64,000 bases of DNA from Rhizodiscina lignyota (GCA_010015805.1 ML978131.1:682001-746000); one strand, 5' to 3'; counted from the first letter of the stretch, positions 7,494 to 44,014 are shown. Notes: generated by a model not told the origin, from the sequence alone. Made by a program: numbers and translations.

Positions 7494-8275
7494 CGCCGTG
7501 CCCACAGCGTTGGCTGCAGAGGTTGATACGCGGATTCGGTGGATCCGCTCCGCGGAGGGGTTCGCCCGCAGCGGCCCTTTTATTGAAAATCAGAGGGAAT
7601 TTCGCCAAGACGCCGGTCGGTGTTGTTTAGCCTGGCGTCGAGACTGGGGAAGGGGTCCACATGGCGAGCGCACTGTGGGGACGGGCTGCGCGCGGCGATG
7701 AGGTGACAGGCCCGCACGACTCGTATCAGAGCCACAAGCTGGAACGCGCGACTCACCTTCGTTTCCCAACCATCTGGATATTCTCCGTGCGGAACGTAAT
7801 CGCGAGTGGAAGCTGTCTTCCATGGAGCCCTGCGGTGTGGGTACAGGCGGAATTGCGAGATGGGACGGAATTGTCGAGCAGACGCCTCGTCTGTCCAGCT
7901 ACACCTGAGCGCGAGTATTCCATATCTAATATAACGAGAGCCAGATACGTTATCACGCAAGTCGTAAAGCCCGACTAGTCTCCTAACACCGTCGAACTAG
8001 GCGCTGGCCATGCGTGTGAGGCTCTGACAATCAATTGCGGGCATGCTCGCAAGGGCGCCTTAGCATGTGTGTGATTACGAACTAATACGGTCCAGATACG
8101 GTAGGAGTTTGAACTGGTTGCTAGAGGCACGTATACAAACGGCAGAGGCAGTCTTCAATTCCCTTGCTTCACTAGTATGGCCTTCGTCAAAGTTCGTATG
8201 TGAACACGCCTTTTAAGTCATTCCGGAACTTCCGGTGAGTGAAAAGGGGGGCTTAAACCACCATGAGCCTCATAA

Positions 8276-9985
8276 TTACCAGACATAACGGAATCTGCCT
8301 TCTTCAGTCCGCTGGAATCTTGTAGATTTCTCCCCTGTCCTCTCTTCCTCTGCTTCGGCCTTGGCCATGCACTTGTTCTCATAGATGAGCCACAAGCTCA
8401 GCAGGGCGCTGACCACGGTAACCAACAAGCAAAATGCGGCGGATATCCACATTCCTTTGCGATAATATGGCTCTTCGCTAGCCGGGAAAACATCTGCACG
8501 AATATGAGCGTCTCATAGCGTGAAGGAGAAAAAGAGTATGAACTCACTCGTGCCAAGGAGCGGACCACACTGTCCGATTGTGGCCAAAATGGTGTATCCA
8601 CCCGCTTTGCGAGACTCGGTAGCATTAATATTTGCAACCCATGCCAGTAATATTGCCACAGATGCAAAAATGTTGACTGCTAAGAATACTCCGACATATC
8701 TCGGTGCTGTCGCCGATGTTGTCGCAAGAATGATGAATCCAATGCCGCCCAACAGCCCACCAGTCGCGCAGAAAGGACCGCGAACTTTAAAGCGGTCACT
8801 AAGGAAAGTGAGAAGAAGAATCATGAAGAAGCAGAGCACGTAAGGCGGAGCACTAAGACCATTCGACTGAATTGTGGTGAAACTGCCCATCTGGCTGATG
8901 ATGGTTGGGATGAAAAGTGGCAGGGACGCGAAAGACACGTTGCACGAGAAATACATGATAGCTGGTAGATAGCCTATATCTTGTTAGCCTCATTACGAAA
9001 GCTGAGATGCTCGTGGAAATACTTTTCGGGTCTTTGAATGCCTCCAGGAGCTGCTTGAAACGCAACCCGGTCTTCCCCTTGTCATCATCGGATACCTGGT
9101 TTCTCGCGACAAATCGACGTGCCATCCTCTTCTCACGATCCGTAAGGAATTTGCAATCGTCCAATGAGTCCGGAATAAACCACCACGCAAGAACGGAGAG
9201 CAGGCATGTTGGGACGCCCTCTAGCCGAGCGTCAGTAAAAAGACGCCGAGAGAATAGACAAATGTGCTCTCACCGATAATGAAAAGGATCTTCCAGGGCG
9301 CCACGCTGCCCTTTATTTGGGAGATGCCATAAGCAAGAGCGCTGCCGTACGCATTTGCTGCTGCTGCGCCAGAAATGAAGACCCCATGCCGAAAGCCAAC
9401 CTTCTCACGGGAATAGAAGTAAGTGAGGTAAAGGGGAACGCCTGGTCCGAACATGGCCTCCGCAATGCCCAGGAAGAACCGACAGGCAGCGAGACCACTC
9501 CAGTTGAAAGCTGTCGCCTGAATGGTCGCAATGAAGCCCCAGAGGAAAACCGTAAAGGCGGCCCATCGGTGCGGTCTGAAGATCTTCCAGCCTGTGACAG
9601 TCCATTGGGAAACAATGTCTGAGGGTGTCATTAGTCACTACTATCTATTTCGACATTAGAATCTATTCAACGTACATGCGACATAGAATATCGTTGTTAA
9701 GGTATTGTACCGATTACCGCTGAGATCGATGTCTTTCGTCATCCCAGCGAGCTTTGCATTGCCCAGATTGGAGCGATCCAAAACGGACAGCGAATAAAGG
9801 ACGAAAACCAAAGGCAAAATGTTTCTGTCGAGCTTGCGCATCAGCGCAGCCTCTTCGGCAGCCGTAGGGATATCCTCATCCTCATCAACAACCAATTGCT
9901 GCGGCTTTTCAGCGTATTGCGCACGCCCGTCAATGCTCTCCTTAATGTCGTCGGACATTGCGTCGCGTTTGTTTTCCTCAGACAT
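8276..9985 (-). CDS. MFS transporter, allantoate/nicotinate (Dal5/Tna1, anion:cation symporter) family; multi-exon
   Basis: RKLDRNILP, LDRSNLGNAKLAG, RFFLGIAEAMFGPG, WKILFIIEG-like segment, LSAPPY; terminal FRYVW-stop. Confidence 0.88.
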
Positions 9986-11051
9986 GATCGCAAATGTCGC
10001 TACTCCTTGGGTGACAGCGAGAATTGAAGGTGAGTTTTCACAGTAGCAGAAACAAAATTGATTCGCTAAAAATCCTTGGGACCGCCGAGCGGTGAATGTG
10101 ACCGTATGACGACAGCTTGCGTGTCTGGGGCACGCGACCCCTTTGCAGCTCTCAACGGAGTCCCAGTAACAATCTTGACGAAGGAAAAAACAAGACTCAG
10201 GCCCAAAGCTTATTTAAAAGAAGATTCTGAACAACCAAGGAGGGAGGCTCTTGGCTGGAAAAGAGCGAGATCGGATAAGATGCAAGAGTGTGCAAAGTCT
10301 GAAGCCCATCTTGCCTTCTCTTCTCCACTCAAGCGCAAACTCTAACCAAAGCAGAGAAAGTGTGGGGTAAAGCCAAGCACCAAAAAGAGCTGTGATGTGA
10401 CGTTGTGGACCTTTGGTGGTTGGTTTTTCCTACCTTCTGCCCTCACGCCCTCTCGCTGTGCCGTCGTGGCCGCGTGCGACCGAAGAGCTCGTACTTACTG
10501 CTCATGTCGTGACTGGCTTCAGCTGAGAGCCCTCCAGCTTCATATACTCTACCACGGACACTATCGAAAGTCGCAATGTGCACAACATTTATCTTGCCTT
10601 TATTATCGCACAGGAAGAAGAATTGCACAATTAGCGTCCTTTGTCATGCAATGAGGTGTTAATAGAGTTTCAGATCCGAGTATCTTCAAGGCAGCCCCAT
10701 ACCTGGCTTGAGTACTCTGTTCAGCCTGCGCTGCGGGCCTACATGCTTCCGTCGGATATGAATCCGCAATCATCAACCTTGTAGAACGGCTTGTGGCGAG
10801 ACTCTCACCGACATGAGGCTAGCCAGAAAAAGCGCGCGTCGTTGATCGCGGGATTTCCGAAGGATGCTGAACTTCCGGGCGCGTGCGAGTCAGTCTTTGT
10901 TCCTTTCGCGCGCGGCGGAAAGTCGGACTCCGGGCGAAATCTATACAAAGTGTAGCTTCTTCCAACGTACCTTTGGAGGTATTGTTTGTTTATTCCCTTG
11001 CTACACCCGGATCTCTGCAGTAAACCTACCACAGGTCGTGGAGCCAAGAGG

Positions 11052-24392: not shown

Positions 24393-26319
24393 GCGCCCCA
24401 TTTGCTGACCCTTTCTAGACACCTCGAAGCGGTTCTGAGGATGTCAACTTCCAAAGTCTCAAGTCAACAACGGTTACTAAGCGACTCAACGAAACAGGTG
24501 ATTCTCAACTTCCATACACTCTAGGCCTGGCGAGGTCTTATACTTTCTTAATTGCTTTGTGGGCATTCGGCATACCGTACCGTGGCGATGTGCACTCACT
24601 CTCATACTCTCACGGTCAGTTCCTTTGCGGCAGGAGGAGCCTTCGGCTTCGATTTCGAAATCCGCGCGGCGGATCAACACAGACGGGTTGCTTTTGAATG
24701 GTATATTCTGACTTGCCGTCTCCGTCGCTTTCGAAGGCTTTTCTATCATGGGACACAAGTCGACACGACTACTACTACAAAAGTCTACTTCGGGTTTGCT
24801 TCAGCTATCAGTCACTTTGCGGTTCGGGGATCTTCATCATCCTCTCCTTCTCGAGGGGAAAACAAATCAGTCATGTCGTCACTTTCCCAGCGTGTACTAC
24901 TATATCCTCTGAATGCATTTCGGCAAATCTGGCAGTCAACCGTCACCACTCGAGGTAAACTTCAACCAAACATGCTCCAACCTGTAGACGATGTCGACAT
25001 CACATTATACCTGGTCGCTCTTGCACAATATCGCGACGTAACTTGAAAGCTTGGAGCCGTAAATGGTTCTTAGTCGCGGCACGCAACCTGGTGCTGCATT
25101 TTCGACCGCGCCATTTGTCACACCGTGATTTGCCGCCTTGAACATCATCACTATCGCCTCACTCTGCTCGACTCTCGCCACTACGTAAATTCGCTACATT
25201 CGATTATTAACGCATCAAAACAACATTGTACTGGTAAATTGCTGTCGCCGCGAAACGTAAAGTCGCTATTCGACAACACCGCCACTTCGCTTAAATCTCA
25301 CGCGCTCTGCCAGTGTACTACAACGAAGTATGTTCAACCATCCACCAAGGCTCTTTGCACGTCAGCTTCGCTCATACTCGAACCACGAAGAATTGGTGCA
25401 GTTGGTTCCCGTCGGGTCTGCGAAGTAGTGTCAATTCTCGGAGAGCACAATCGGGGGAGGGGGCGCGACTAACTCATTTTACTGACTAAAGCAGGAAGCA
25501 GACACAGACACCCAATCATACTTAATTGTTCGAGCGGATTCGGTCTGCCTACCGAAAAACTACTTTTGACAGGAGAATCATCCCAGAGCGTCCGATGCGA
25601 CGATACTCTAACACTGTTCCAGGAAGGCAACTGAAAAATGGGCTTGAAACAAGCGCACCTGCGACTGTACGCTCGCAATCTCGAAGGTTGATATAGGGAC
25701 ACGTTCATGTCATCCGTTCTTGACAATGCTGGCACATGATTGTCCCCGAATCGCTAATGGCATTGATTTTTTGTCTTGCTCACAGTTTGGAAAGTCTCGA
25801 GGATGAGACAGCACAGGAGAAGATTGATTCGGCTCTCCCTGCAGACTCCTATGCTTAGTTTCTGGCTACGCAATCGGAACATGAGATTCTGATTTCTTGC
25901 AGCCGATGTTTCAAAGAGTAAGTCGTTGCATGCGAGTGCTGCTACTGCTATATATTGATACTTCGGGCTTTTGAAGCAAACTTTGGTTCTAGACAGGTGA
26001 ACTCGAGAGTTAGGAATTAAGTTACCATTAGGAATAGATACAATTCGCGAAGAGACAGAATCTATATGCTGCTGCAGTTCGATAAACCTGATCAAATCGG
26101 TGCAGGGGTGCACCATCATGCCTACCAAATGCGGAAGTATGTTTTGCGGGGTCGGGGGCTGCTTCCAGCTTGACAACTTCACAAATTCGCCCTCAAATCA
26201 ACTCTCCGTACACCTCTGACCACACACAATCTAAGGCTGGCCAGTGTCCTGAATCCCAGCTCTACATTCTTCATCGTGTGTATCGTGGGAGATTTGCGAT
26301 AATCCAGTGGCAGTTACGC

Positions 26320-27594
26320 ATGCAGCTGCTTCAAAATGGGAAGAGCGTGCCGCAATCGCCGTCCTTTCGTTCACTGTCTCCGATAGCTCGCAAAATGCCC
26401 TCAAGGCGAAGGCTGCTCCTTGCAGCAGCTACATTGGCATGTATAATCTTTGTCTTAATATTACGAAGAGGCAGCATCGAACAAACATTAGGAGGAGACC
26501 TGCAGATACCTGGAGCATCTTCATGGCTCTCGAACGTCAACATCGGCAGTGCCCTCCCCAAACTATCACATGGAGGAGTCACACACAGCGACAAGAATTA
26601 TACAAGGCTCCTGGTGGTGCCTACGATGAAAGGCAACGACATCTCATGGCTGGACCAGGAACTCCCCACCCTCGATAAGATAACCTACGTCGCCGACGAC
26701 CGCACCGCCCCTTACCACCCGCCCAAGAACAAGGGCAACGAAGTCATGATCTACCTCACCTACATCATCGACCACTACGATGCCCTCCCCGACATAACCA
26801 TCTTCCTGCACGCGCACCGCCACGCCTGGCACAATAATGACCTGCTGGACAACGACGCGGCGCAGATGCTGCAGCGGCTGAGCAACGCAAGGGTGATGAG
26901 GGAAGGATATATGAACTTGCGCTGTCAATGGGATCCCGGGTGCCCGCACTGGTTGCACCCCAAGAGTGACGATTTTCATCTGAAGAAGCAGGAGCAGATA
27001 TTCATTGCAAAGGCATGGGGCGAGCTGTTCCCCTTCGAGCTCATGCCCACCGCGCTCAGTGCGCCGTGCTGTGCGCAGTTTGCAGTATCGAGGGACGCGA
27101 TTCGCGCCTTGCCAATCTCGAGATACGTCTGGTTCCGCGACTGGATCATGCGCACGGAGCTGAGCAATTACATGGCCGGCAGGGTGTTTGAGTACATTTG
27201 GCAATACATCTTCACTGGGGTGCATGAGGTGTGTCCGAGCCAGCATGTGTGCTATTGCGATGGGTATGGCGTGTGCTTTGCCGGCGAGCGCGCGTTCCAG
27301 AGGTGGTTTGAAATGCGTTGGCGGATGAATGAGAAGAAGAAGGACCTGGACAAATGGCGGGAGATGAATGTAGAGTATGAGGAAGCGAAGAACAATGGCA
27401 CGCTGGAGAGTATGAAGGAAGCGGATAGACCGCAGCAGCCGGAGGCTGTGAGGGATGATGTACTGCAGAGGGAGATTGAGAGTATGAGGATTGAGATGGC
27501 GGATATGAAAGAGGTGGCGCTCAGAAGGGGATTGGATCCGAAGATCAGGGCGCAGGAGTCCGGGAGGAAATGGGAGGAAGGTGATGGCTTTTGA
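26320..27594 (+). CDS. DUF3431 family protein (type II membrane, possibly glycosyltransferase-like); alternative start at 26395
   Basis: N-terminal TM helix; PKNKGNEVMIYLTYIIDHYD.LPD, FLHAHR.AWHN, GYMNLRCQWDPGCP, PCCAQFAVSR, GRVFEYIWQYIF. Confidence 0.85.
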   Translation: MQLLQNGKSVPQSPSFRSLSPIARKMPSRRRLLLAAATLACIIFVLILRRGSIEQTLGGDLQIPGASSWLSNVNIGSALPKLSHGGVTHSDKNYTRLLVVPTMKGNDISWLDQELPTLDKITYVADDRTAPYHPPKNKGNEVMIYLTYIIDHYDALPDITIFLHAHRHAWHNNDLLDNDAAQMLQRLSNARVMREGYMNLRCQWDPGCPHWLHPKSDDFHLKKQEQIFIAKAWGELFPFELMPTALSAPCCAQFAVSRDAIRALPISRYVWFRDWIMRTELSNYMAGRVFEYIWQYIFTGVHEVCPSQHVCYCDGYGVCFAGERAFQRWFEMRWRMNEKKKDLDKWREMNVEYEEAKNNGTLESMKEADRPQQPEAVRDDVLQREIESMRIEMADMKEVALRRGLDPKIRAQESGRKWEEGDGF

Positions 27595-28966: not shown

Positions 28967-29947
28967 CTAAGCACCGTGCTCTAATAAGCTCTTGACTACG
29001 TCAACCACGCATGGTTCCAGTAGAGTGTAGTGCAAACCCAGTACGTCTCTGGAACGACGCGTATCCACCGAAGTGGTCTTATTGTCTTTTAGCTCGGAAG
29101 GGACCCTATTAGATATTTGTGGGAAATTTTTCTTGATGGCATCTCCGATCTCTTTCTCCGACGCACTTCCGCAGGTGATCAAGAACCTCTTCCCTGCAGC
29201 CTCTTCCTTCTCGATCGCAAGAACATGTGCTTCTGCGAGATGCCGAACGTCAACCCACAATGTGGGCCCCGTATCACCCGGCCGGAATTTGCCTTGCACC
29301 ATGCTCAGAAATCGCTTGTTGGACGTATTGACATCATCTAGAGACTTCAAGTGCTGAATGACAGGCCCAAAAACCATTGGGGGATTCAGCACCGCAAGCG
29401 TAAACCCCGGCTTCTCCCTCTCAACAAACTCCCATGCTGCCCGCTCCGCAAACGTCTTACTCCCCTCATACGCGACGTGCCCGTTCGTGGTCGTGAGGGC
29501 TTCGTCCATCGTTATCGGATTCCAGGAGTCCTCATTATACGTCTTCGGATGATTCCCCGGGTTTACAATCGCCGCGAAACCCGACAAAATCACCACCCTC
29601 TTCACAGACGGCGCATATGCCTTGATAGCTTTCAGTATTCCCGTGGTACCGATGATCGCCGTGTCGATCAAGTCGCGCTTGTTGTCCTGTATGTTGTAGT
29701 GGAAGGGACTTGCGGTGTGGATCACGGCGTCGAATTGCGTCGCTTTGATGGCTTCATCGAATGCACCTTCTTGGGCGATGTCGTCGACGAGGGTATAGGA
29801 CAAGTTCTTCCCACGATGCATGTCGAGCAGGAATTGGCCCTTCTCCGCAGACCGGACTGTGGTTACGACTTCCTGGCCGCGGGTCAGGAGTTTGTCTAAA
29901 CAGTGAACAGCAACGAAGCCACTGCCTCCGGTGAGAAGTACTTTCAT
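28967..29947 (-). CDS. NAD(P)-dependent ketoreductase/epimerase (GRE2/aldehyde reductase II-like extended SDR); intronless
   Basis: LLTGGSGFVA, VIHTASP, YEGSK (YxxxK) TFAERAAW, NPPMVFGP. Confidence 0.88.
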   Translation of the reverse strand: MKVLLTGGSGFVAVHCLDKLLTRGQEVVTTVRSAEKGQFLLDMHRGKNLSYTLVDDIAQEGAFDEAIKATQFDAVIHTASPFHYNIQDNKRDLIDTAIIGTTGILKAIKAYAPSVKRVVILSGFAAIVNPGNHPKTYNEDSWNPITMDEALTTTNGHVAYEGSKTFAERAAWEFVEREKPGFTLAVLNPPMVFGPVIQHLKSLDDVNTSNKRFLSMVQGKFRPGDTGPTLWVDVRHLAEAHVLAIEKEEAAGKRFLITCGSASEKEIGDAIKKNFPQISNRVPSELKDNKTTSVDTRRSRDVLGLHYTLLEPCVVDVVKSLLEHGA

Positions 29948-30663
29948 GATGGGACTGGAAATGAGAAACCTGAAACGACGACTTCAAGTGTAGATTAAAT
30001 GAGAAAATGGATGAAATGGATAGATTTGATGGTCTTCTAAATTGACCAAATACCTGCAATTCTCAACGCCCTCGAGTACTCAACTCATTCAGCTATGCCG
30101 GACCTTGAGATTCGAATAAGCTGCCCGGGACAACATCGCCAATGTCGCTAACAGATGATAATTGGAATCATTGGGAACATTTGCAAGCCGCGCTACATAT
30201 GTAAACGCCGTACTTTGAGGGTGGGCCAGGGTATCGCAAACCGCTTCGGTCGATTTGCCATGTTCGACGGCAGGATGTCTAGAATTGGAGGGCCTCACAC
30301 TTACTGTCCATCTACGGGTGCATCAATCTGAGGCATGCCTTGTTGCTCTCCTTTAATCGCTTTAAGCTTCTTTACTTTCGGCGTTTCTTGAGCGTCCGTC
30401 TCTCTAGACTCGGAAGCCGCAGTTGGTAGCTCCAACAGCCCAGTGAGCGCGACAACACCGAGTCCCCTCACATTCTGCCATTTCAAGATCCTGCGCTTCG
30501 GGCAATTTGCACGCCGGAGAGATTTCTAAGGAACGAGATATTTAATTTCTAACTTGAAGTTGAGAGCGGAACGAGTGCGGAATCCTCTTGAGATACCACT
30601 CTACCCCTAACCCTACTCCACTATATTGTTGCCCACAACACTGTTTCTTAGGGTTTCCAACCC

Positions 30664-31488: not shown

Positions 31489-32339
31489 TCAAGGTATCTC
31501 TGAGTCTCTCAGCTCTTTGCGCGCCTTGCGTTTCTCATCAATCTCCTCTTTCGCTCGGAAATATGCACTTAGCTTCCCAACAGGTCTGTCCCCTCCGAAC
31601 AAGGCCTTGTATCTATACATGAAAGCCTTGATCTCGGTATCCATCTTATCAAGTGGCGATGGCGCTGCACCCTCGCTCTCAAGACTGGAAATAGCGGCTT
31701 CCAGCATGTCTCGCTCCTCGAATTGGATCTGCTTGCTCAACTCCACTTCCCCTACTGTATGTCCCCAATCAGTCTCGTCGACCACGACCTTGAACTGCCC
31801 ATCGACCAACCAGGTCTGCCTGTGAGTAAACAACCACAGCATCTCCTTCAGTCCGAAATTGTCTAGTGTGCTCTTATCCTGCCTCCCTGCCCCCGCATCC
31901 GCGAGCGCACTATAGCCGATATCTCTGTGGGCGACTGATACTCCTCGAACCGCGAGTTGCGATAATCCCCGCCCCTATCGACTTTCGCTTCCCACCCAGC
32001 ATTCGTAGCAAGCCCTAGACTCCCTATCATCGTCTTATGTGGCACATCCCGATCGTTCATGAAGTACTGCTCGCGGAATCGGACCCAAACGCCTCTAGAG
32101 CAGAGGGCGGCATTATCATCGTAGTAGGTGTCGGTGATTCCTTCTGTGTTCAGTTTCTTCACACTCTGGAAGATGCAGACAGGCGGTAGTTCGGTATGCG
32201 GTTTAGCCAAAACGTCATTGGGGACAGTGATCTTGTTGGGAGAGGCGACATTTTCAGTGCGAAGGGCAGTGAGCAGGCGAGGTGTGGGTACGAATTTGCG
32301 CTCGGCCTCGAGGATTCGGGTGAGAAGTCTTCGAGACAT
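31489..32339 (-). pseudogene. CYTH-domain (thiamine-triphosphatase-like) protein with an apparent frameshift near 31860-31900 (real lesion or assembly error)
   Basis: EAERKF (ExExK), TDTYYD, GVWVRFR, WEAKV, RFEEY in the first ORF; DNFGL, WLVDGQFKVVVDETDWGHTVGEVEL, GKLSAYF in a second frame. Confidence 0.7.
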
Positions 32340-32656
32340 TGTTCTCGATGTGTTGTGTTACTCTTTGAAGTTGGTTATATAGATAGGAATCACAATTACA
32401 TTAGTTGAATAGAAAGATCTAGTGATAATGTTTGTACATCATGTTGTACACCAAACCGTTGCCACAGAAGGGTGTTTGTTATAACCCAACTAGTGATACA
32501 TGTTTACGCAGCCTCAAGGTAGCCTGGAGCCATATGCCCAGTAAGGTAAATGTTGTAAAAATAGGTGAACCTAAAGCGGGTGTTAAGGGCGGTGGTTGTG
32601 TAGGAACCAGATTAAATATATGCCTATATATTTAATATTCCAATTTCCATATCTCA

Positions 32657-32760
32657 GCGGTGTGGTGCCCGATTGGTTAAGTTGGAATCGACAGATGGAA
32701 TCGAAGGCTAGTTTCGATTCAAAGCGACGCTCTCCACGCGTCCAATCCACGCCAGCCGCA
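32657..32760 (+). tRNA. Degenerate tRNA-like / Pol III-like element
   Basis: GCGG...CCGCA acceptor-like ends, A-box/D-arm-like TGGTGCCCGATTGGTTAAG, degenerate T-loop GTCCAATCC, immediately followed by a T10 run. Confidence 0.3.
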
Positions 32761-33415
32761 CTTTTTTTTTTCTTCTTATTTCTTTTTCGCCTTTTTCTAT
32801 AACCTCTAGTTTATATTCACTTCTAGTTCCAGCTCATTTCCTTTTATCGCTGTGGGTTGACGTTTTCACGGAGCAGAGTTGGGGCACGCGGCTTGAAGTT
32901 GCACTTCACTAGGCACAAACACACCAGGCGAAGACCCGTCTTCACATAATATTGTCATTGGAATGTCCGCATGATATTTCTTTTGCCAGCAGCAATATTC
33001 TCGAAGTTTAACGTTCTACCAGCCACTTAGCTGTCTGCGCAGACTCAGTCTAAGGGGCAGGCGGTCTGCCGCCATACGGACGCTCACGATGGGTGCGCGT
33101 TCCGCATATCTTACAGAACCAATCACACTCTCGCTAGTGATAGCTTAGTTCTATGTTCTTCTGAGTATATGATAATGACAGACAATTGAAAAACTTGCCT
33201 GCTCACAAGGCTCAAGAGTGACTGGAGAGTTGGCTGCCGGACAGAGAAAGTAGAGACAACGCGGGATGACTCGCTCTGAGGAGGCGAATGCTGTAACGCA
33301 CAAAGGCAGTTAGCTCTCGCTGAAGATACAGTTCTGTATTATCTGGAGGTTACACATCATGTCCATTCGGCGCCCTGAAGACTACAGCTAACTTCTCTGT
33401 CACTCTAAGCTTGAC

Positions 33416-34230
33416 TCAGGCTCCCAGCAAGAGCCTGTACCACTTCGCAAAATTCTTGTACGACATCTCTGTCTCCTCTCCCGTATCAAAGTCTAGAAAC
33501 AAATGCTTGTAATTCTTTAGAATTTCAAAAATGTTCTGCTCGTATTCCGAATATCGTTTCTCAAACAGCTGCTCATCATCCGCCTCTCTCGCACGTGCCA
33601 GGTACCTTTCCTTCGCCAACCACTTGGAGCAATGTAGATGCAGCACTGCTTCTGGCTTCCCGAACGACCTCTCAAACTCCGCTGCTTGCGCGACATCCCG
33701 TGGGAATCCGTCAATGATGATGGCGCGTGGTGGTTGTGCGATGTGCTGGACCTTGAATTCAGGTCCATCTTTGACTGTCACAACTTTATTCTCATCGACG
33801 TTGTAATGCATGAAAATCTGCAGGACCAGCGGTCTGGTGCTTGTCGTTTTGTACAGATCCGGAGCAATGCGCGTCGCAATATGGTCCAACATAAGCGGGT
33901 CGTTGCACTCCAAGCCCAGTTCTACGGAATCAATCTTCAGCTTCAGAAGCGGCATGAGGACACATGCAGGGAGCAGGTCTCCGCTCGTGAGACGCGCTTC
34001 GACGATACTACGCAGGAGGTTCGGTCCTTCGCCTTGAGCATCGCGCACACTGCGGAGGAAGTCGCCCACGGACAGGTGGTAGAGATTGTGATCTTGAGCG
34101 AGGCGTTTGAGAAGGGTACCTTTGCCGGCACCCGGTGGACCTTGTACGTGAGGAGTTAGTATCTGCGTGTTCTGTTGAGGATTCAAATAGTTTGGAGTTC
34201 ACCTATTGCAAAAATGATGGGAATGCCCAT
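33416..34230 (-). CDS. Nucleoside monophosphate kinase, adenylate kinase / UMP-CMP kinase family (short LID); one intron 34141-34202
   Basis: Spliced N-terminus MGIPIIFAIGPPGAGKGT (P-loop), HLSVGDFLR, IIIDGFPR, RYLARAREADD; GT...CTAAC...AG intron restores the P-loop. Confidence 0.88.
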
Positions 34231-34753
34231 CTTGTTCAAAGCTGAATGTGGGTGTCGTGGAGACTGATAGGATTGAGAGGTTCTGGCTCCAGAGCAGGTG
34301 GACGCCTTTATGTATGGCAGCGATAAGTCGTTTGTGGAGTGAGAAACGGGAAAGCAGAGGAGGTTGAAAGGTATTCAATGCCGCTTGCAATGAAGCAATT
34401 GAATGCCGGAAAATTGAAAACAGCAACAAGTATTCTCATCGTTCAACAATGGCAGGTAACAAATGCACATTCATGGTCAATGAGAAGCATTGCATGCTGG
34501 TGATAGACGCTGTGAGGGAATAATGAATAGACAAGCAAACCTGTTGCGCGAGCCTCTGCAGCTAAGAAGTGGCCATAAAAGTTGTCTCAAACAATGAGAC
34601 AATGATTCCCTACCAAGCATGTGCTGTCCAAGAACAGAGCATTCAAACACGCATCACGGAATATATAATCTACGCATAGACCGTAAGTCTCGTTGAATCC
34701 TTAAGCACTTGCGTCCAGAAGATCTCCGGGAAGATCTTTCACTTTTTGTCACG
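34231..34753. promoter_or_regulatory. Short divergent intergenic region shared by the kinase and viperin genes
   Basis: Head-to-head ATGs ~520 bp apart; a TATA-like atatataa near 34660 upstream of viperin. Confidence 0.55.
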
Positions 34754-35788
34754 ATGTTGTCTTTCCAGCAAATCAAAGCCGTAGGAGGCATTTCCATCCT
34801 TCTCCTTGGTGGCGGCGCATACCTATTCCATGAGAAAATCGGCATCGTATTTACGAAGCTTCGGGATCGTCTTCCATTTTTGGCTCGTCGCAAAATTCCG
34901 GTCTCCGTCAACTACCACTTTACAAGGGTTTGCAACGCAGAATGCGGTTTCTGCTTCCACACAGCAAAGAGTTCCTACAGAGCTCCCTTGGAAGACGCCA
35001 AACTGGGTCTGCTCATGCTCAAACGCGCCGGGATGCGAAAGATGAATTTCGCCGGAGGAGAGCCGTTCATGTACCCCAAGTTCCTTGGCGAGCTGCTGGA
35101 ATTCTGTCGCGATGAGCTCCAGCTTGAGAGCATATCGATCGTGACCAACGGGACCAAGGTGACGGAGAAGTTCCTTGAAAAATACGGCCGATGCATCGAC
35201 ATTCTCGCCGTTTCGTGCGACTCGTTCGACGCAAAGACGAACATTGAGATTGGCCGCGGCAAAGACGGCGGAAACAGGGAGCAGCTCTTCCGAATTGCTG
35301 AGTGGTGTCATGAGTATGGCATCAAGTTCAAGCTCAACACGGTGGTCTGCAAGCTCAACTATCATGAGGACATGGTTGACACGGTGGAGCAGCTGGGTCC
35401 ATTCCGCTGGAAGTGTTTCCAGGTCCTGATGGTTGAAGGGGAGAACGACTCTGAGAAGACGCTACGAGATGTTAGGAAGTTCCAAATCACGGACGAGCAG
35501 TACGAGGAGTTCTGCGACCGCCACAAGCACCTGAAGTGCTTTGTACCAGAGTCAAACAAGGTGATGGCTGGTTCGTACTTGATACTGGATGAGTTTCTGC
35601 GTTTCCTTGACAAGGCTGACGGCATTGAGACTGCGTCTGACTCGATCCTTGAGGTTGGCGTACAGAAGGCTCTGGAGCAGGTCCGTTGGGATGAGGAAAG
35701 CTTTGAGAAGAGAGGTGGAGTCTACGACTGGAGCAAAGAAGTGGCAGCGGGATGCGGAGAAGGCTTGGACAAGGCGCTGGAGTTTTGA
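34754..35788 (+). CDS. RSAD2: Viperin / RSAD2-like radical SAM enzyme (ddhNTP synthase); intronless
   Basis: SVNYHFTRVCNAECGFCFHT (CxxxCxxC), NFAGGEPF, SIVTNG, DILAVSCDSFD, FKLNTVV, RWKCFQVL, VPESN..M.GSYLILDE..RFL, RGGVYDWSK; N-terminal hydrophobic helix. Confidence 0.95.
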   Translation: MLSFQQIKAVGGISILLLGGGAYLFHEKIGIVFTKLRDRLPFLARRKIPVSVNYHFTRVCNAECGFCFHTAKSSYRAPLEDAKLGLLMLKRAGMRKMNFAGGEPFMYPKFLGELLEFCRDELQLESISIVTNGTKVTEKFLEKYGRCIDILAVSCDSFDAKTNIEIGRGKDGGNREQLFRIAEWCHEYGIKFKLNTVVCKLNYHEDMVDTVEQLGPFRWKCFQVLMVEGENDSEKTLRDVRKFQITDEQYEEFCDRHKHLKCFVPESNKVMAGSYLILDEFLRFLDKADGIETASDSILEVGVQKALEQVRWDEESFEKRGGVYDWSKEVAAGCGEGLDKALEF

Positions 35789-36796
35789 AATCTGTTGAGA
35801 ATGCTCTGACAAAGGATAGAAAGGAGGAAGAGGACTGAGAGATGAACGGATCCTGAGAATGACAGAAATGTTGGTGGTAGCTTTGAAGGCATTGCACTGC
35901 AATAGGGTGTAACCTCTGTAATCAACACAGCATACAGGTTTTTCAAGAGTGTGCTGACGTTGTGTACACTCCAAGGAGCGTAGGACTGAGCTTCCACCGA
36001 TGGCCTTGCTTCCTTTAAGTGTGAGCTGCTCCCCCTGTCATTGCAGCTTGCCCGTCTGCCCGCTGGTCTGTCACCTCGAGCGGATGGAGTCATGGTGGAA
36101 GAACGGATGGAAGAAAGGGAAATGTTGAGTTTGCTTCTTTATTCACAGTTATTTTCTTTTGATCACTTCTATGAAGTTGAACGAACGCAGTCGCGGATGA
36201 AGTTGAGATAAGACGGGCTCCTTTGGACAAAGCGGCCGCCAAGCCTCCCGGGATACGCGTAAGGGCGCTGTGCTCTTACTGGACCCTGGGCCAAATTAAT
36301 TCGCGTCGATTAGCGTGATGAGATGCAGCCATCTTGCGGGGCCAGCAGGCAGCGATCACGGGCGCGACTTATTGGCCGTTCATTTCGCGTGGCACGGACT
36401 TGGATGATGCACTGCCAACCACAGCTTGACATTCTTCCACATGCGTGCGTTCAACTTCATCGTTAAACCTACTCTCGCACACCATCCTCCACGCCTCTCT
36501 CTCCCCAGCGTGACCCCTAGCTTGTGCCTGTCATGTGCGCGGGGTTTGTAGCCATTACCAAGCCCGCGGCGAAATAAATAAAAGGTCGGTCTGCATTCCC
36601 ACGCGCGAGGCCTCGTGCCCATCTTTCCGGTCATCGTGGCCTCTCGAGTCGCCCCGTCGTCGTACAAAGGGCGGGCAAGACAAAAGCCATTAACATGCTG
36701 CAGCCTCCTTTACGCCCCAGACCACACTTCACCCATCACCGAACTGCTTCTTCCGTCCTCTACCGCGTCGAAGAGGAATCTTCAATAGCGCCCAGC

Positions 36797-38510
36797 ATGT
36801 CTGACCCACTCCCTATTCCCTTAAAGACTCGCTCTCAACCCGACCTGGTCGACTCGAGATTTTCTGCTGCAGAGTCTCTTGCAGGTGACAAAACATACGC
36901 TTCCTCTGCTTTCCTCGGCGAGTCACCGCCAAATGGCTCGAAGACCCCGAATTTCTCATCATCTCCGCCTACGCCCGGTAAGCTGTCGCGGACGGCCTCC
37001 TTTTCTAATGGATCCGCCTACGACGACGATCCGTTCGTACCGCCGCCGGATCGAATCACCGTATTCGACCTCCTCGAAAATCTTGCTCTCCCACAGCGCC
37101 TAGAGCAGCTGCAGAGCACAATGACAGAAAGTGTGCGAAGGCAGCAGCAGCGGTTCCGGTCCAGTGGGCAGAACGCAAAGGATAAAGTCATAGATGAATG
37201 GAGACGGAGGCTGCCAACCGCAGATGAACAACTTGGGAAGTATAGAAAGCGGATGCGCGAAAGAGTGGACAGAATTGGCAAGACGTGGAACGACCGGAAG
37301 ACCGTCAGTGTCCGCGAAAAGGTTTCCTTCATCGCTGGCGTATTCAACATATTCATAAGCGGCTACTTTATCGGCTCGCATCCAGAATGGTTCCACTTGT
37401 GGTACGCGGCGCAGCTCGTATATTTCATGCCTATCCGATTCTATACCTACCATCGACGAGGGATGCACTATTTCTTGGCCGACCTTTGCTATTTCGTCAA
37501 TGGACTTCTTTGTCTCAGCATATGGGCCTTCCCGAACTCCAAGCGGCTCCTCCTGTCAACATTTTGCCTTGCTTACGGGAATAACGCCATTGCAATAGCT
37601 ATGTGGCGGAATATGTTGGTCTTCCACTCTTTGGACAAGGTTACGAGGTATGTCATTCCCCTAAATGCGTAAATCCATCTCTCGTCTGACCTTTCTTTCT
37701 AGTCTCTTCATCCACATTATGCCCTGCGTAACCCTCCACTGCCTCGTCCACCTCATCCCCCCGGAGCTTCAAGCTGCCAAATACCCCGCAATATACCGCA
37801 TCAAGAACGCCCCCAAAGGCACCCCCTTCCACTACTCCCCCGCCGAATTTCTGCTTTGGGCCTCCGTGCCCTACGCCCTTTGGCAGGCCACATACTACTT
37901 CTTCATCACCTGGCGGCGTAAAGAGAAAATCGCCGCCGGCCGCCTCACGTCCTTTGTGTGGCTGCGACGCTCTTACAAAGGCACCATGCTCGGCAACATC
38001 GTGCACCGCCGCCCCGAATGGCTGCAGGAGCCGACGTTCATGCTCATCCAGTACTTCTACGCCATGCTCACCACCCTGCCGTGCGCCTTGTGGTTCTGGT
38101 ACCGCTACGCCAGCGCGGGCTTTCTGACCATTGTGTTCGCGTGGAGTGTGTATAATGGCGCCACATACTATATTGATATCTTTGGGAGACGGTTTGAGAG
38201 GGAGCTCGAGCAGCTTAGGCGCGATGTCCAGAGAATGCAGAATAGTCCGGATGGGTTTAAGACGCCGCTTCTGACGCCGAATGATGGCGATAAAGGGCTT
38301 GAGATGACGGCTGGTAGGCGTCATGAGAGGAGCACGAGTACGGGAAGTGACAGTGAGATTAGCTACATGGGCAATGGGCATACGAAGAACAGAGAAAGCG
38401 TGGATCACATCCCTCTGCTCGACGAGAGTGTCAAGGATGTCGTGGTCAATGGTGATGGAGATGCTGGGCAAAGGACGCCGACGGGTCTGGAAGACAAGAA
38501 GAATGCGTAA
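36797..38510 (+). CDS. GPC1: Glycerophosphocholine acyltransferase GPC1 (DUF2838); intron ~37648-37702; possible upstream start at 36695
   Basis: EKVSFIAGV, MPIRFYTY, HYFLADLCYFVN, WRNMLVFHSLDKVTSLFIHIMP, GRLTSF.WL, YNGATYYIDIFGRRF. Confidence 0.88.
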
Positions 38511-42876: not shown

Positions 42877-44014
42877 ATGAAGCTCGAGCTTTCGGGCCCA
42901 CTGCCAGAAGCAGTGGCAAGTAAATTTCGTGAAGCAAAGTCGAAGGAGAGCCTCACATTCTCTCATACGGAGCTCGCAACAATATGCACGAGCTCCGGAA
43001 TACCGGTGAGTAAGTAGCAGTTCAAATTGTCGCTGGAAAATAAGTATGGTAGTTGACAAACATGGGATGGAACAGTTTCAGCTCCGCTACTGTCCAGCGC
43101 TTGCAAAGAAGCCTACACAAAATGACAAGCCAACTCCCTCTGAAAAGAAGCCCGACCCATTTCTAGACCCACCCGACGACCTCCTGATCACAAGGATCTC
43201 CTCTGCTACATCTTCTCACGTATTGGTATTGAATAAGTACCCTGTAATTGCCAACCATTTTATAATCGCCACAAGAGAGGACAAGCCGCAGACACACGTT
43301 CTAGAGGCAGAAGACCTTGAAGCTACATATCTGTGCTTGCATGAGTGGGAGAAAGATGGTGGAGGGAAGCGACTCTTCACGTTCTTCAATTCTGGAGAGC
43401 ACAGTGGCGCCAGTCAGCCGCATCGACATTTACAATTTCTACCGATAGAGAGCATGAAAGAAGGCGATGAAGACGGAGAATGGCAAGTCCTGTCGGATAG
43501 GATATCCGGTCGTTCAAGGAGGTACAGCGCGGGAGCTGCGGCCACAGGCCCATCACCCCAAACAGAACTCCCTTTCGCCTGCTTCTCTCGAGCGATTCCG
43601 CAAAATGCGAGTTCTGACCAGCTGTTTACCATCTACACCACGCTCCTTTCTGAAGCGACAGTGGCCGCAAGGTCTTATGCGCAAGCGCATCCAACAGATT
43701 TTGCGCTTCCCACTATCTCCGGAGAGTCTATTCCGGCACCAATATCTTATAACCTGGCAATGACTACGTCGTCAATGGTATTATGCCCACGAAGCAGCGA
43801 AGGAGTGGTATTGAAACAGCAGGACGGGTCAGAAGCCGGATATGTTGCCCTGAATGGCACGATTTTAGGCGGGACCCTAATGGTGAAGCTCAAAGAAGAG
43901 TGGGACATCCTGCGAGGAGATTCGACAGCCTTGGATTTGCTGCTGGCGGCAATTGGGATCCCTACAAGCGGTTCATCGAGCGAAGAGGTCGTCGAAAACG
44001 AGTCAAGATTGTAG
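42877..44014 (+). CDS. APA2: ATP adenylyltransferase / Ap4A phosphorylase (APA1/APA2 family); intron ~43006-43075
   Basis: FQLRYCPALAKKP, KPDPF, LVLNKYPVI..HF, FFNSGEHSGASQPHRHLQF (HxHxQ), SYNLAMT, LNGTILGGTLMVK. Confidence 0.88.

Follow-up and report, generated by a model that had tools for sequence, protein, structure and literature searches.

A possible fungal three-gene cluster of viperin, a nucleoside monophosphate kinase and a CYTH-family gene, seen in Rhizodiscina lignyota and in a second locus

Introduction

A viperin gene, a divergent nucleoside monophosphate (NMP) kinase gene and a gene of the CYTH family adjoin one another in a stretch of 64,000 nt from Rhizodiscina lignyota (GCA_010015805.1, ML978131.1:682001-746000), referred to here as the window, with all positions counted from its start. 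The same three genes, in identical order and orientation, occur in a second, distantly related locus of probable fungal origin, in surroundings that have otherwise changed. The evidence is evenly balanced on whether fungi conserve these genes as a three-gene cluster that extends the known viperin–kinase pair, with the CYTH gene as a genuine, undescribed third member. In the window itself, the CYTH copy carries a frameshift and is very probably inactive, judging from its reading frames.

The pairing of viperin with a kinase is known. According to a preprint by Shomar et al. (10.1101/2023.09.13.557418), approximately 70% of fungal and animal viperins have genetically linked kinases; those of fungi are of the CMPK1 type, have an origin separate from that of CMPK2 and may support the uridine triphosphate (UTP) preference of fungal viperins, which are patchy in distribution. 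The original prediction put forward the whole three-gene cluster as apparently undescribed in fungi; since the viperin–kinase pair has already been published for fungi in that preprint, novelty is confined to the CYTH member. A full-text literature search returned no paper tying viperin to CYTH, to a triphosphate tunnel enzyme (TTM) or to thiamine triphosphatase (ThTPase); it did not extend to the neighbourhood tables that supplement the preprint, and an earlier report of a viperin–CYTH link may exist.

Structure of the Locus

The studied interval is delimited precisely by two stop codons, that of CYTH (31489) and that of viperin (35788), and the three adjoining genes that had been predicted there are confirmed in the sequence. 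Along the window, the order is CYTH (minus strand), kinase (minus strand) and viperin (plus strand), such that kinase and viperin are divergent and CYTH and kinase are in tandem. The database models of CYTH and kinase bear consecutive GenBank accessions, KAF2095615.1 and KAF2095616.1. The features of the interval are as follows.

34754..35788, plus strand: viperin coding sequence (radical-SAM synthase of 3′-deoxy-3′,4′-didehydro-nucleoside triphosphates, ddhNTPs; SAM, S-adenosylmethionine), single exon, 344 amino acids plus stop, ATG at 34754, stop at 35786-35788
34231..34753, no strand: kinase–viperin intergenic region, 523 nt between the divergent ATGs, presumed bidirectional promoter
33416-34230, minus strand: kinase gene (AK1/UMP-CMP-type), ATG at 34230, one intron
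34203..34230, minus strand: kinase exon 1, MGIPIIFAI plus the first base of a Gly codon
34141..34202, minus strand: kinase intron 1, 62 nt, GTGAAC...CTAAC...AG, phase 1, directly before the P-loop
33416..34140, minus strand: kinase exon 2 including the stop, with P-loop GPPGAGKGT, NMP motif LSVGDFLR, DGFPR and the LID arginines
33731..33937, minus strand: lineage-specific kinase insertion, approximately 60-69 amino acids, separating the NMP-binding part from the DGFPR strand
32340..33415: kinase–CYTH spacer, 1076 nt from kinase stop to CYTH start, presumed CYTH promoter, with a low-complexity stretch inside
31489-32339, minus strand: CYTH (ThTPase-like) gene, ATG at 32339, two reading frames needed
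31890..32339, minus strand: CYTH 5′ part, frame A, with EAERKF (ExExK), DTYYD, WVRFR and WEAKV
31890..31894, minus strand: G5 run in which the frame is one base short; frame A ends ...RMRG and frame B follows as AGRQDK...
31816..31910, minus strand: "intron" of the CYTH database model (P0001, 251 amino acids, KAF2095615.1), 95 nt, with a weak GTGCGC donor
31489..31889, minus strand: CYTH 3′ part, frame B, stop at 31489-31491, with FGL...THRQTW (invariant Arg), VVVDETDWGHTVGEVEL and the C-terminal helices FM..Y...F....GKLSAYF

The Trio in a Second Locus

A prokaryote genome collection was scanned with two fungal viperins, which yielded 62 loci, including L003 (OZ255840.1:5638718-5655611) in a record titled as a Lapillicoccus metagenome-assembled genome (MAG) chromosome. 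The GC content is 18-56% in L003 and 21-56% over approximately 97 kb around it (5.60-5.69 Mb), versus 71% at 1.0 Mb of the same record. The L003 kinase contains three spliceosomal introns, with the signals GTGAGC; GTATGT...CTGAC...CAG; and GTAAGA...CTAAC...TAG. From its composition and gene structure, L003 is probably a fungal segment in a chimeric or mis-binned record. Regarding the record itself, OZ255840.1 holds at least 97 kb of eukaryote-type DNA (low GC content, spliceosomal introns and fungal-family genes) under a bacterial title. The three genes of L003 are listed below, in positions of that locus.

6570 to 5941, minus strand: CYTH, an intact open reading frame (ORF) of 210 amino acids, 33% and 41% identical to the two halves of the window gene
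7651 to 6866, minus strand: kinase, 212 amino acids, 46% identical over 80 amino acids and 35% over 110 amino acids, Pfam ADK 1.3e-24
7935 to 8942, plus strand: viperin, 61% identical over residues 31-332 of the window viperin (302 amino acids)

Gene order and orientation are those of the window for all three genes, and the spacers are shorter, at 283 nt between kinase and viperin and 295 nt between CYTH and kinase. The first kinase intron (48 nt in L003) occupies the same position and phase in both loci, splitting the Gly codon before [PA]PG[AS]GKGT, which argues for orthology of the kinases. The L003 CYTH is the sole match to the family profile in its 6.65-Mb record (E 7.5e-74); its identity is 56-57% with the database proteins P0168-P0170, which include one from a Diploschistes diacapsis MAG, and 39% with the window CYTH. 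None of 10 ORFs flanking the window trio has a homologue in the approximately 97 kb around the L003 trio; L003 is bordered instead by AT-rich DNA and by ORFs that lack Pfam matches. The trio is thus kept in L003 and its flanks are not, indicating that the genes around the three were exchanged and the three themselves were not separated. Linkage of the trio is found in both loci with enough flank to be scored (the window and L003), a very small sample. Absence of the linkage from other fungi, which the original prediction had named as grounds for abandoning it, is therefore not what was seen, as the sole other scorable fungal-type locus carries all three genes.

Beside the L003 trio, ORFs at 9621-10634 encode a CxC...LPCxH-like motif and have no Pfam match at E 1e-3; the motif recalls SWIM/MULE transposases.

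Viperin

The window viperin is, from its complete ORF and motifs, an intact member of its family, for which ddhNTP synthesis is predicted; it had been described as intact, and this description holds. The protein carries an N-terminal hydrophobic helix, the CxxxCxxC cluster motif as CNAECGFC at residues 60-67 (C60, C64 and C67), the GGEP motif for SAM and, near the C-terminus, R-G-G-V-Y (within KRGGVYDW), which provides the RxxxY substrate clamp. This clamp is reported to be essential in fungal and human enzymes (10.64898/2026.09.10.750538). The Pfam Radical_SAM domain is matched at 1.6e-18, and a PDB search returned 20 matches, nine of which are solved viperin or viperin-like chains (E 4.8e-123 to 3.2e-99) and the other 11 different radical-SAM enzymes (E at least 6e-9). 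Solved fungal, cnidarian and mammalian viperins align over residues 38-341. Furthermore, the protein scores above the cut-off of NCBIfam NF038283 (251.9 bits versus 180), a model that also covers prokaryotic viperins and thereby marks a likeness to these, and below that of the vertebrate-only TIGR04278 (385.3 versus 450).

Kinase

The kinase was predicted as a divergent, head-to-head member of the adenylate/UMP-CMP kinase family, and each part of this description is upheld. Its spliced product is identical to the 250-amino-acid database protein P0002 and matches Pfam ADK at 5.7e-20 in two stretches (72.4 bits versus a cut-off of 26.8). In the kinase alignment (A3), the P-loop, R39, DGFPR, R188, R192 and R205 are invariant, so that the motifs of the ADK family are complete. 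The closest PDB relatives are human AK5, yeast uridylate kinase, AK1 and UMP-CMP kinase. An ESM Atlas model (predicted TM score 0.80) has UMP-CMP kinase clusters as its structure neighbours (TM 0.67-0.71), and a single-sequence AlphaFold2 (AF2) model is of low confidence (predicted local distance difference test, pLDDT, 37.9). The kinase scores below every NCBIfam cut-off, including TIGR01359 for UMP-CMP kinase (77.0 versus 207.6) and TIGR01360 for AK1 (77.1 versus 284.1); because it lies below these curated subfamily scores, its substrate cannot be named from sequence. A word-index protein search with the kinase gave a best non-self match of 30% identity, by an insensitive method that overlooked a CYTH homologue of 48% identity (see below).

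The lineage-specific insertion shows in the alignment with AK5, which breaks at residues 67 and 137 (numbered in the translated exon 2). It is absent from all eight other sequences of A3 and from the L003 kinase; DGFPR stands at residue 153 in the window kinase versus residue 91 in that of L003. The kinase is probably divergent and still active, to judge by its conserved motifs.

The CYTH Gene: Family Membership

That a CYTH-family gene lies in tandem with the kinase, starting 1076 nt downstream of the kinase stop, is confirmed through its homologues. Pfam CYTH matches neither half of the window gene nor the database model P0001, even at E 10; by contrast, PF01928 (CYTH) is passed by 7 of 15 tested homologues, and the membership of the window gene therefore rests on these homologues together with a family profile that matches only ThTPases in the PDB. 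In a HMMER search of 1.84 billion representatives, the annotated CYTH product matched 209 proteins at E ≤ 1e-3 and 65 at E ≤ 1e-10, with P0012 as the best non-self match (48% identical). A word-index protein search with a CYTH half found only the gene itself and overlooked this homologue. Homologues in named fungi come from Cladorrhinum samala, Venturia inaequalis, the Diploschistes diacapsis MAG and Zalaria obscura, and in a FastTree phylogeny of weak support the window CYTH groups with P0012 and P0025 (Zalaria obscura). Searched against a word-indexed protein database, the family profile matched 185 proteins; among the best 120 of these, many are named thiamine-triphosphatase or CYTH-like, and the taxa comprise Sordariomycetes, Dothideomycetes, Eurotiomycetes, Leotiomycetes and lichen fungi. 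This spread over fungal classes identifies the family as a widespread fungal branch resembling THTPA.

Against the PDB, the family profile (60 members) had five matches, all of them ThTPases (E 1.8e-23 to 1.6e-22), and the mammalian 25-kDa THTPA (3bhd, 3tvl, 5a64, 5a65 and 2jmu) supplies the only sequences matched. The ExExK motif, the Tyr/Lys dyad, the stacking Trp, RxR and ExE, as described for THTPA, are all conserved in the fungal family. According to the ThTPase literature, the stacking Trp and the Tyr/Lys dyad are what these enzymes use to bind a "heterocycle plus triphosphate"; as these residues are kept, the pocket of the fungal family suits an "aromatic heterocycle plus triphosphate." The fungal proteins differ from THTPA in their extra loops, their long C-terminal helical tail and the genomic link to viperin. 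The window CYTH model is less than 20% identical to THTPA and overlaps its fold poorly (TM 0.33-0.41), the model being that of a truncated annotation, in which one strand is missing from the eight-stranded tunnel fold expected of TTM enzymes (AF2, pLDDT 82.1). All eight Foldseek hits of this model at E ≤ 0.001 are nonetheless ThTPase chains, followed by class IV cyclases and TTM3, with TM values of only 0.33-0.41.

The CYTH Gene: Frameshift and Gene Model

The window CYTH lacks an intact ORF. From the ATG at 32339, frame A reads ...EISAIVRSRMRG and then meets a stop at 31863-31865, and frame B reads AGRQDKSTLDNFGLKEMLWLFTHRQTWLVDG... as far as the stop at 31489. The homologue P0012 is continuous over the junction (RMCMVEAGIQDKS, RMCMVEAGIQDKSRKQNFGLKRW), and BLASTP aligns it with both halves, at 42% over 159 amino acids for frame A (E 5e-31) and 60% over 55 amino acids for frame B (E 9e-20), the latter beginning exactly at AGRQDK. 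The continuity of P0012 and the two BLASTP alignments thus show that the G5 run (31890-31894) has one base too few for the frame. Contigs derived from reads of a DNA run (approximately 142x) have the same sequence over the break, with no indel; these contigs probably come from the assembly's own data, so that a slip of the assembly is excluded and a strain-specific mutation is still possible.

The GenBank model closes the frame with its 95-nt "intron," which deletes 32 conserved CYTH codons, including those for a Leu found in 54 of 59 homologues and an Arg found in 59 of 59; frame B encodes both. This intron is most likely an artefact of the gene caller bridging the frameshift, as read from the codons that it removes, and in practical terms the GenBank CYTH model (251 amino acids) appears to mask a frameshift behind a false intron. 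An alternative 59-nt intron (GTATCA...GAG) that would heal the frame was rejected, as its signals are poor and it deletes residues conserved in the homologues.

With the two frames read through, the EAERKF, RxR, K, R and ExE tunnel residues are all present. The read-through carries the majority residue at 37 of the 38 columns that are at least 85% conserved among 59 homologues, the exception being F to W; ExExK, Y, W, RxR, K, R and ExE are all among these columns. Such conservation implies that the inactivation is recent. Because of the frameshift, the three-enzyme system foreseen for this genome cannot be at work in it at present.

Regulatory Regions

The 523-nt kinase–viperin region and its 283-nt equivalent in L003 have 11 8-mers in common, versus 4.6 ± 2.7 in shuffles, which is a weak signal. 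Among them are AAACAATGA, ACAATGAT, ACCTGCCAT and CACGCATCA, and motifs common to both regions may be a regulatory site, as far as sequence can tell. The first two of these overlap as AAACAATGAT in L003 (approximately 7725-7745) and stand separately in the window (34590-34612).

The CYTH gene is not tied to the pair in this way. A repeat and k-mer search of the two loci found no motif common to the CYTH upstream regions and the viperin–kinase promoters, and no 8-mer of the window CYTH spacer is common to all three other regulatory regions compared; the proposal that the trio is co-regulated thus finds no promoter motif linking CYTH to kinase and viperin. A 19-nt direct repeat (84% identical) does occur upstream of CYTH (33174-33192) and in the viperin–kinase promoter (34402-34420), and its two copies may well be due to chance. 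Within the CYTH spacer, the low-complexity stretch at 32618-32777 is covered by a separate short contig at approximately twice the depth, with one T>C at 32683, and is probably a repeat also present elsewhere in the genome.

Flanking Genes and Other Sequence Surveys

The flanks named in the original prediction, a DUF3431 gene and a GPC1-type gene, are present as predicted; its description of the region as an accessory stretch is unsupported, as the wider window contains housekeeping genes (gamma-tubulin complex, EPL1 and MIF4G/MA3).

26092-27594: DUF3431 gene, flank
28967-29983: NAD-epimerase-family gene, between the two named flanks
36578-38510: DUF2838 (GPC1-type) gene, flank

An Ap4A phosphorylase/ATP adenylyltransferase gene lies at 43010-44014, approximately 7 kb from viperin (Ap4A_phos_N 4.4e-28, ATP_transf 1.5e-20), and no counterpart was found near the L003 trio.

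Metagenome contigs scanned with viperin provided L001, which is 57% identical and, at 1273 nt without flank, too short for linkage to be scored, and L002, a distant radical-SAM sequence. Viral contigs gave 107 pattern matches and no relative. The other 61 loci of the prokaryote scan are bacterial and were rejected as viperin systems, as they match only residues approximately 49-157 of viperin and have housekeeping neighbours. Their survey comprised 481 ORFs in 234 clusters, 123 representatives of which were compared with Pfam, with ORFs of more than 700 amino acids and many singletons left out; none of the 123 representatives matches Pfam CYTH or ADK, and since these loci are not viperin systems, the survey is uninformative on prokaryotic viperins. 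In L005-L042 (Cytophagales, Chlorobiales and other bacteria), the gene concerned is a radical-SAM gene resembling the N-terminal half of viperin (33-40% over residues approximately 49-157), conserved beside accD, ftsA/ftsZ or smpB in many Bacteroidota, that is, in a setting of the housekeeping type and not a defence island.

Interpretation and Alternatives

Like the RSAD2–CMPK2 pair and the fungal viperin–CMPK1 pairs in the accessible part of Shomar et al., the window viperin adjoins, and is divergent from, an NMP kinase of the CMPK1/AK1 branch. The window differs from those systems by a third conserved neighbour, the ThTPase-like CYTH gene, which that part of the preprint does not mention, and by the 60-69-amino-acid kinase insertion, which the L003 orthologue lacks. 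In the three-gene cluster, viperin would convert UTP/CTP to chain-terminating ddhUTP/ddhCTP and the kinase would feed it by phosphorylating UMP/CMP, thereby raising the pyrimidine nucleotide supply, both roles being those expected from the respective families. The CYTH enzyme, to go by its linkage and pocket type, would remove the terminal phosphate of a ddh-nucleotide or a related triphosphate, a step that would limit self-poisoning or start the conversion to ddh-nucleoside. In the window genome, the module would now run as a two-gene version with the CYTH step missing. The published linkage of viperin and kinase (10.1101/2023.09.13.557418) is a precedent for selected linkage and in this respect supports reading the trio as a cluster.

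Several observations weigh against the CYTH gene as a member, and most of them favour the principal alternative, a two-gene module with the CYTH gene as a conserved bystander, namely a housekeeping fungal gene of the ThTPase/tripolyphosphatase type that is a neighbour by ancestral synteny and is decaying here. The comparison depends on two loci. The CYTH gene is frameshifted while viperin and kinase are unharmed and intact, and is thus dispensable at least in the short term, and no promoter motif is common to it and the viperin–kinase pair. The family is conserved across fungal classes and widespread in Pezizomycotina whereas fungal viperins are described as patchy in published surveys, which suggests a viperin-independent function. 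The L003 protein is a typical, top-scoring member of this family (the profile E-value and identities to P0168-P0170 are given above). The family also keeps the Trp, Tyr and Lys that define ThTPases and that the literature assigns to binding and catalysis of thiamine triphosphate (ThTP), and an independent housekeeping role is possible. What speaks for the three-gene cluster instead is that order and orientation are kept between loci whose viperins are 61% identical and which have none of the 10 flanking genes in common within approximately 97 kb. Gene order is scrambled in Pezizomycotina, and neutral retention of a third neighbour over such a distance is, on that expectation, unlikely. Weighed together, a bystander is a serious possibility to which we give somewhat less than an even chance.

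Two further explanations give the genes other roles. The trio might make a free ddh-nucleoside antimetabolite for secretion or storage, with CYTH starting the dephosphorylation and no intracellular antiviral system involved. Nucleoside antibiotic clusters, such as that of cordycepin, combine a kinase, a modifying enzyme and a phosphohydrolase, and the logic of the trio is alike; in L003, furthermore, the trio moves as a compact unit, with its 295-nt and 283-nt spacers, and lies beside AT-rich, repeat-like DNA. However, genes for transport, tailoring or a second phosphatase are missing near the trio in both loci, a TTM enzyme takes off one phosphate and not three, and the window viperin keeps its membrane anchor, as antiviral forms do, so that we regard such a product cluster as improbable. 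It is more improbable still that kinase and CYTH form a pair of their own, in which the AK1-like kinase makes ThTP from thiamine diphosphate, CYTH degrades it and viperin is an unrelated neighbour. In a review (PMC8615392), cytosolic adenylate kinase appears among the enzymes capable of ThTP synthesis, and fungi are said to have yielded no specific ThTPase so far; kinase and CYTH, moreover, stand in tandem in both loci. Yet in both loci the kinase has its promoter region in common with viperin and not with CYTH, its closest matches in structure are UMP-CMP kinases, and the viperin–kinase linkage is documented independently (10.1101/2023.09.13.557418).

Perspective

Viperin products are natural chain terminators, and we know of no account of how cells that make ddhNTPs avoid harming themselves and dispose of these products. 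If an enzyme that cleaves triphosphates is conserved in linkage with viperin, it would be the first candidate for this step. A further-reaching and doubtful proposal is that viperin has had a dedicated partner of ancient origin in the ThTPase-like CYTH family, namely a ddhNTP phosphohydrolase that would shield host polymerases or channel ddh-nucleotides to ddh-nucleosides. If this is true, the link of CYTH to viperin and kinase is no younger than the split between the lineages of the two loci, whose viperins are 61% identical, and the missing enzyme between ddhCTP and serum ddhC would be named. The "thiamine triphosphatase," which has no settled physiological role, may then be a component of the viperin pathway, perhaps also in animals. 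The linkage would provide a testable function for the fungal ThTPase-like family, which has no characterised member, and the trio would be a rare case of a conserved eukaryotic multi-gene immune cluster that extends beyond the published viperin–kinase pair.

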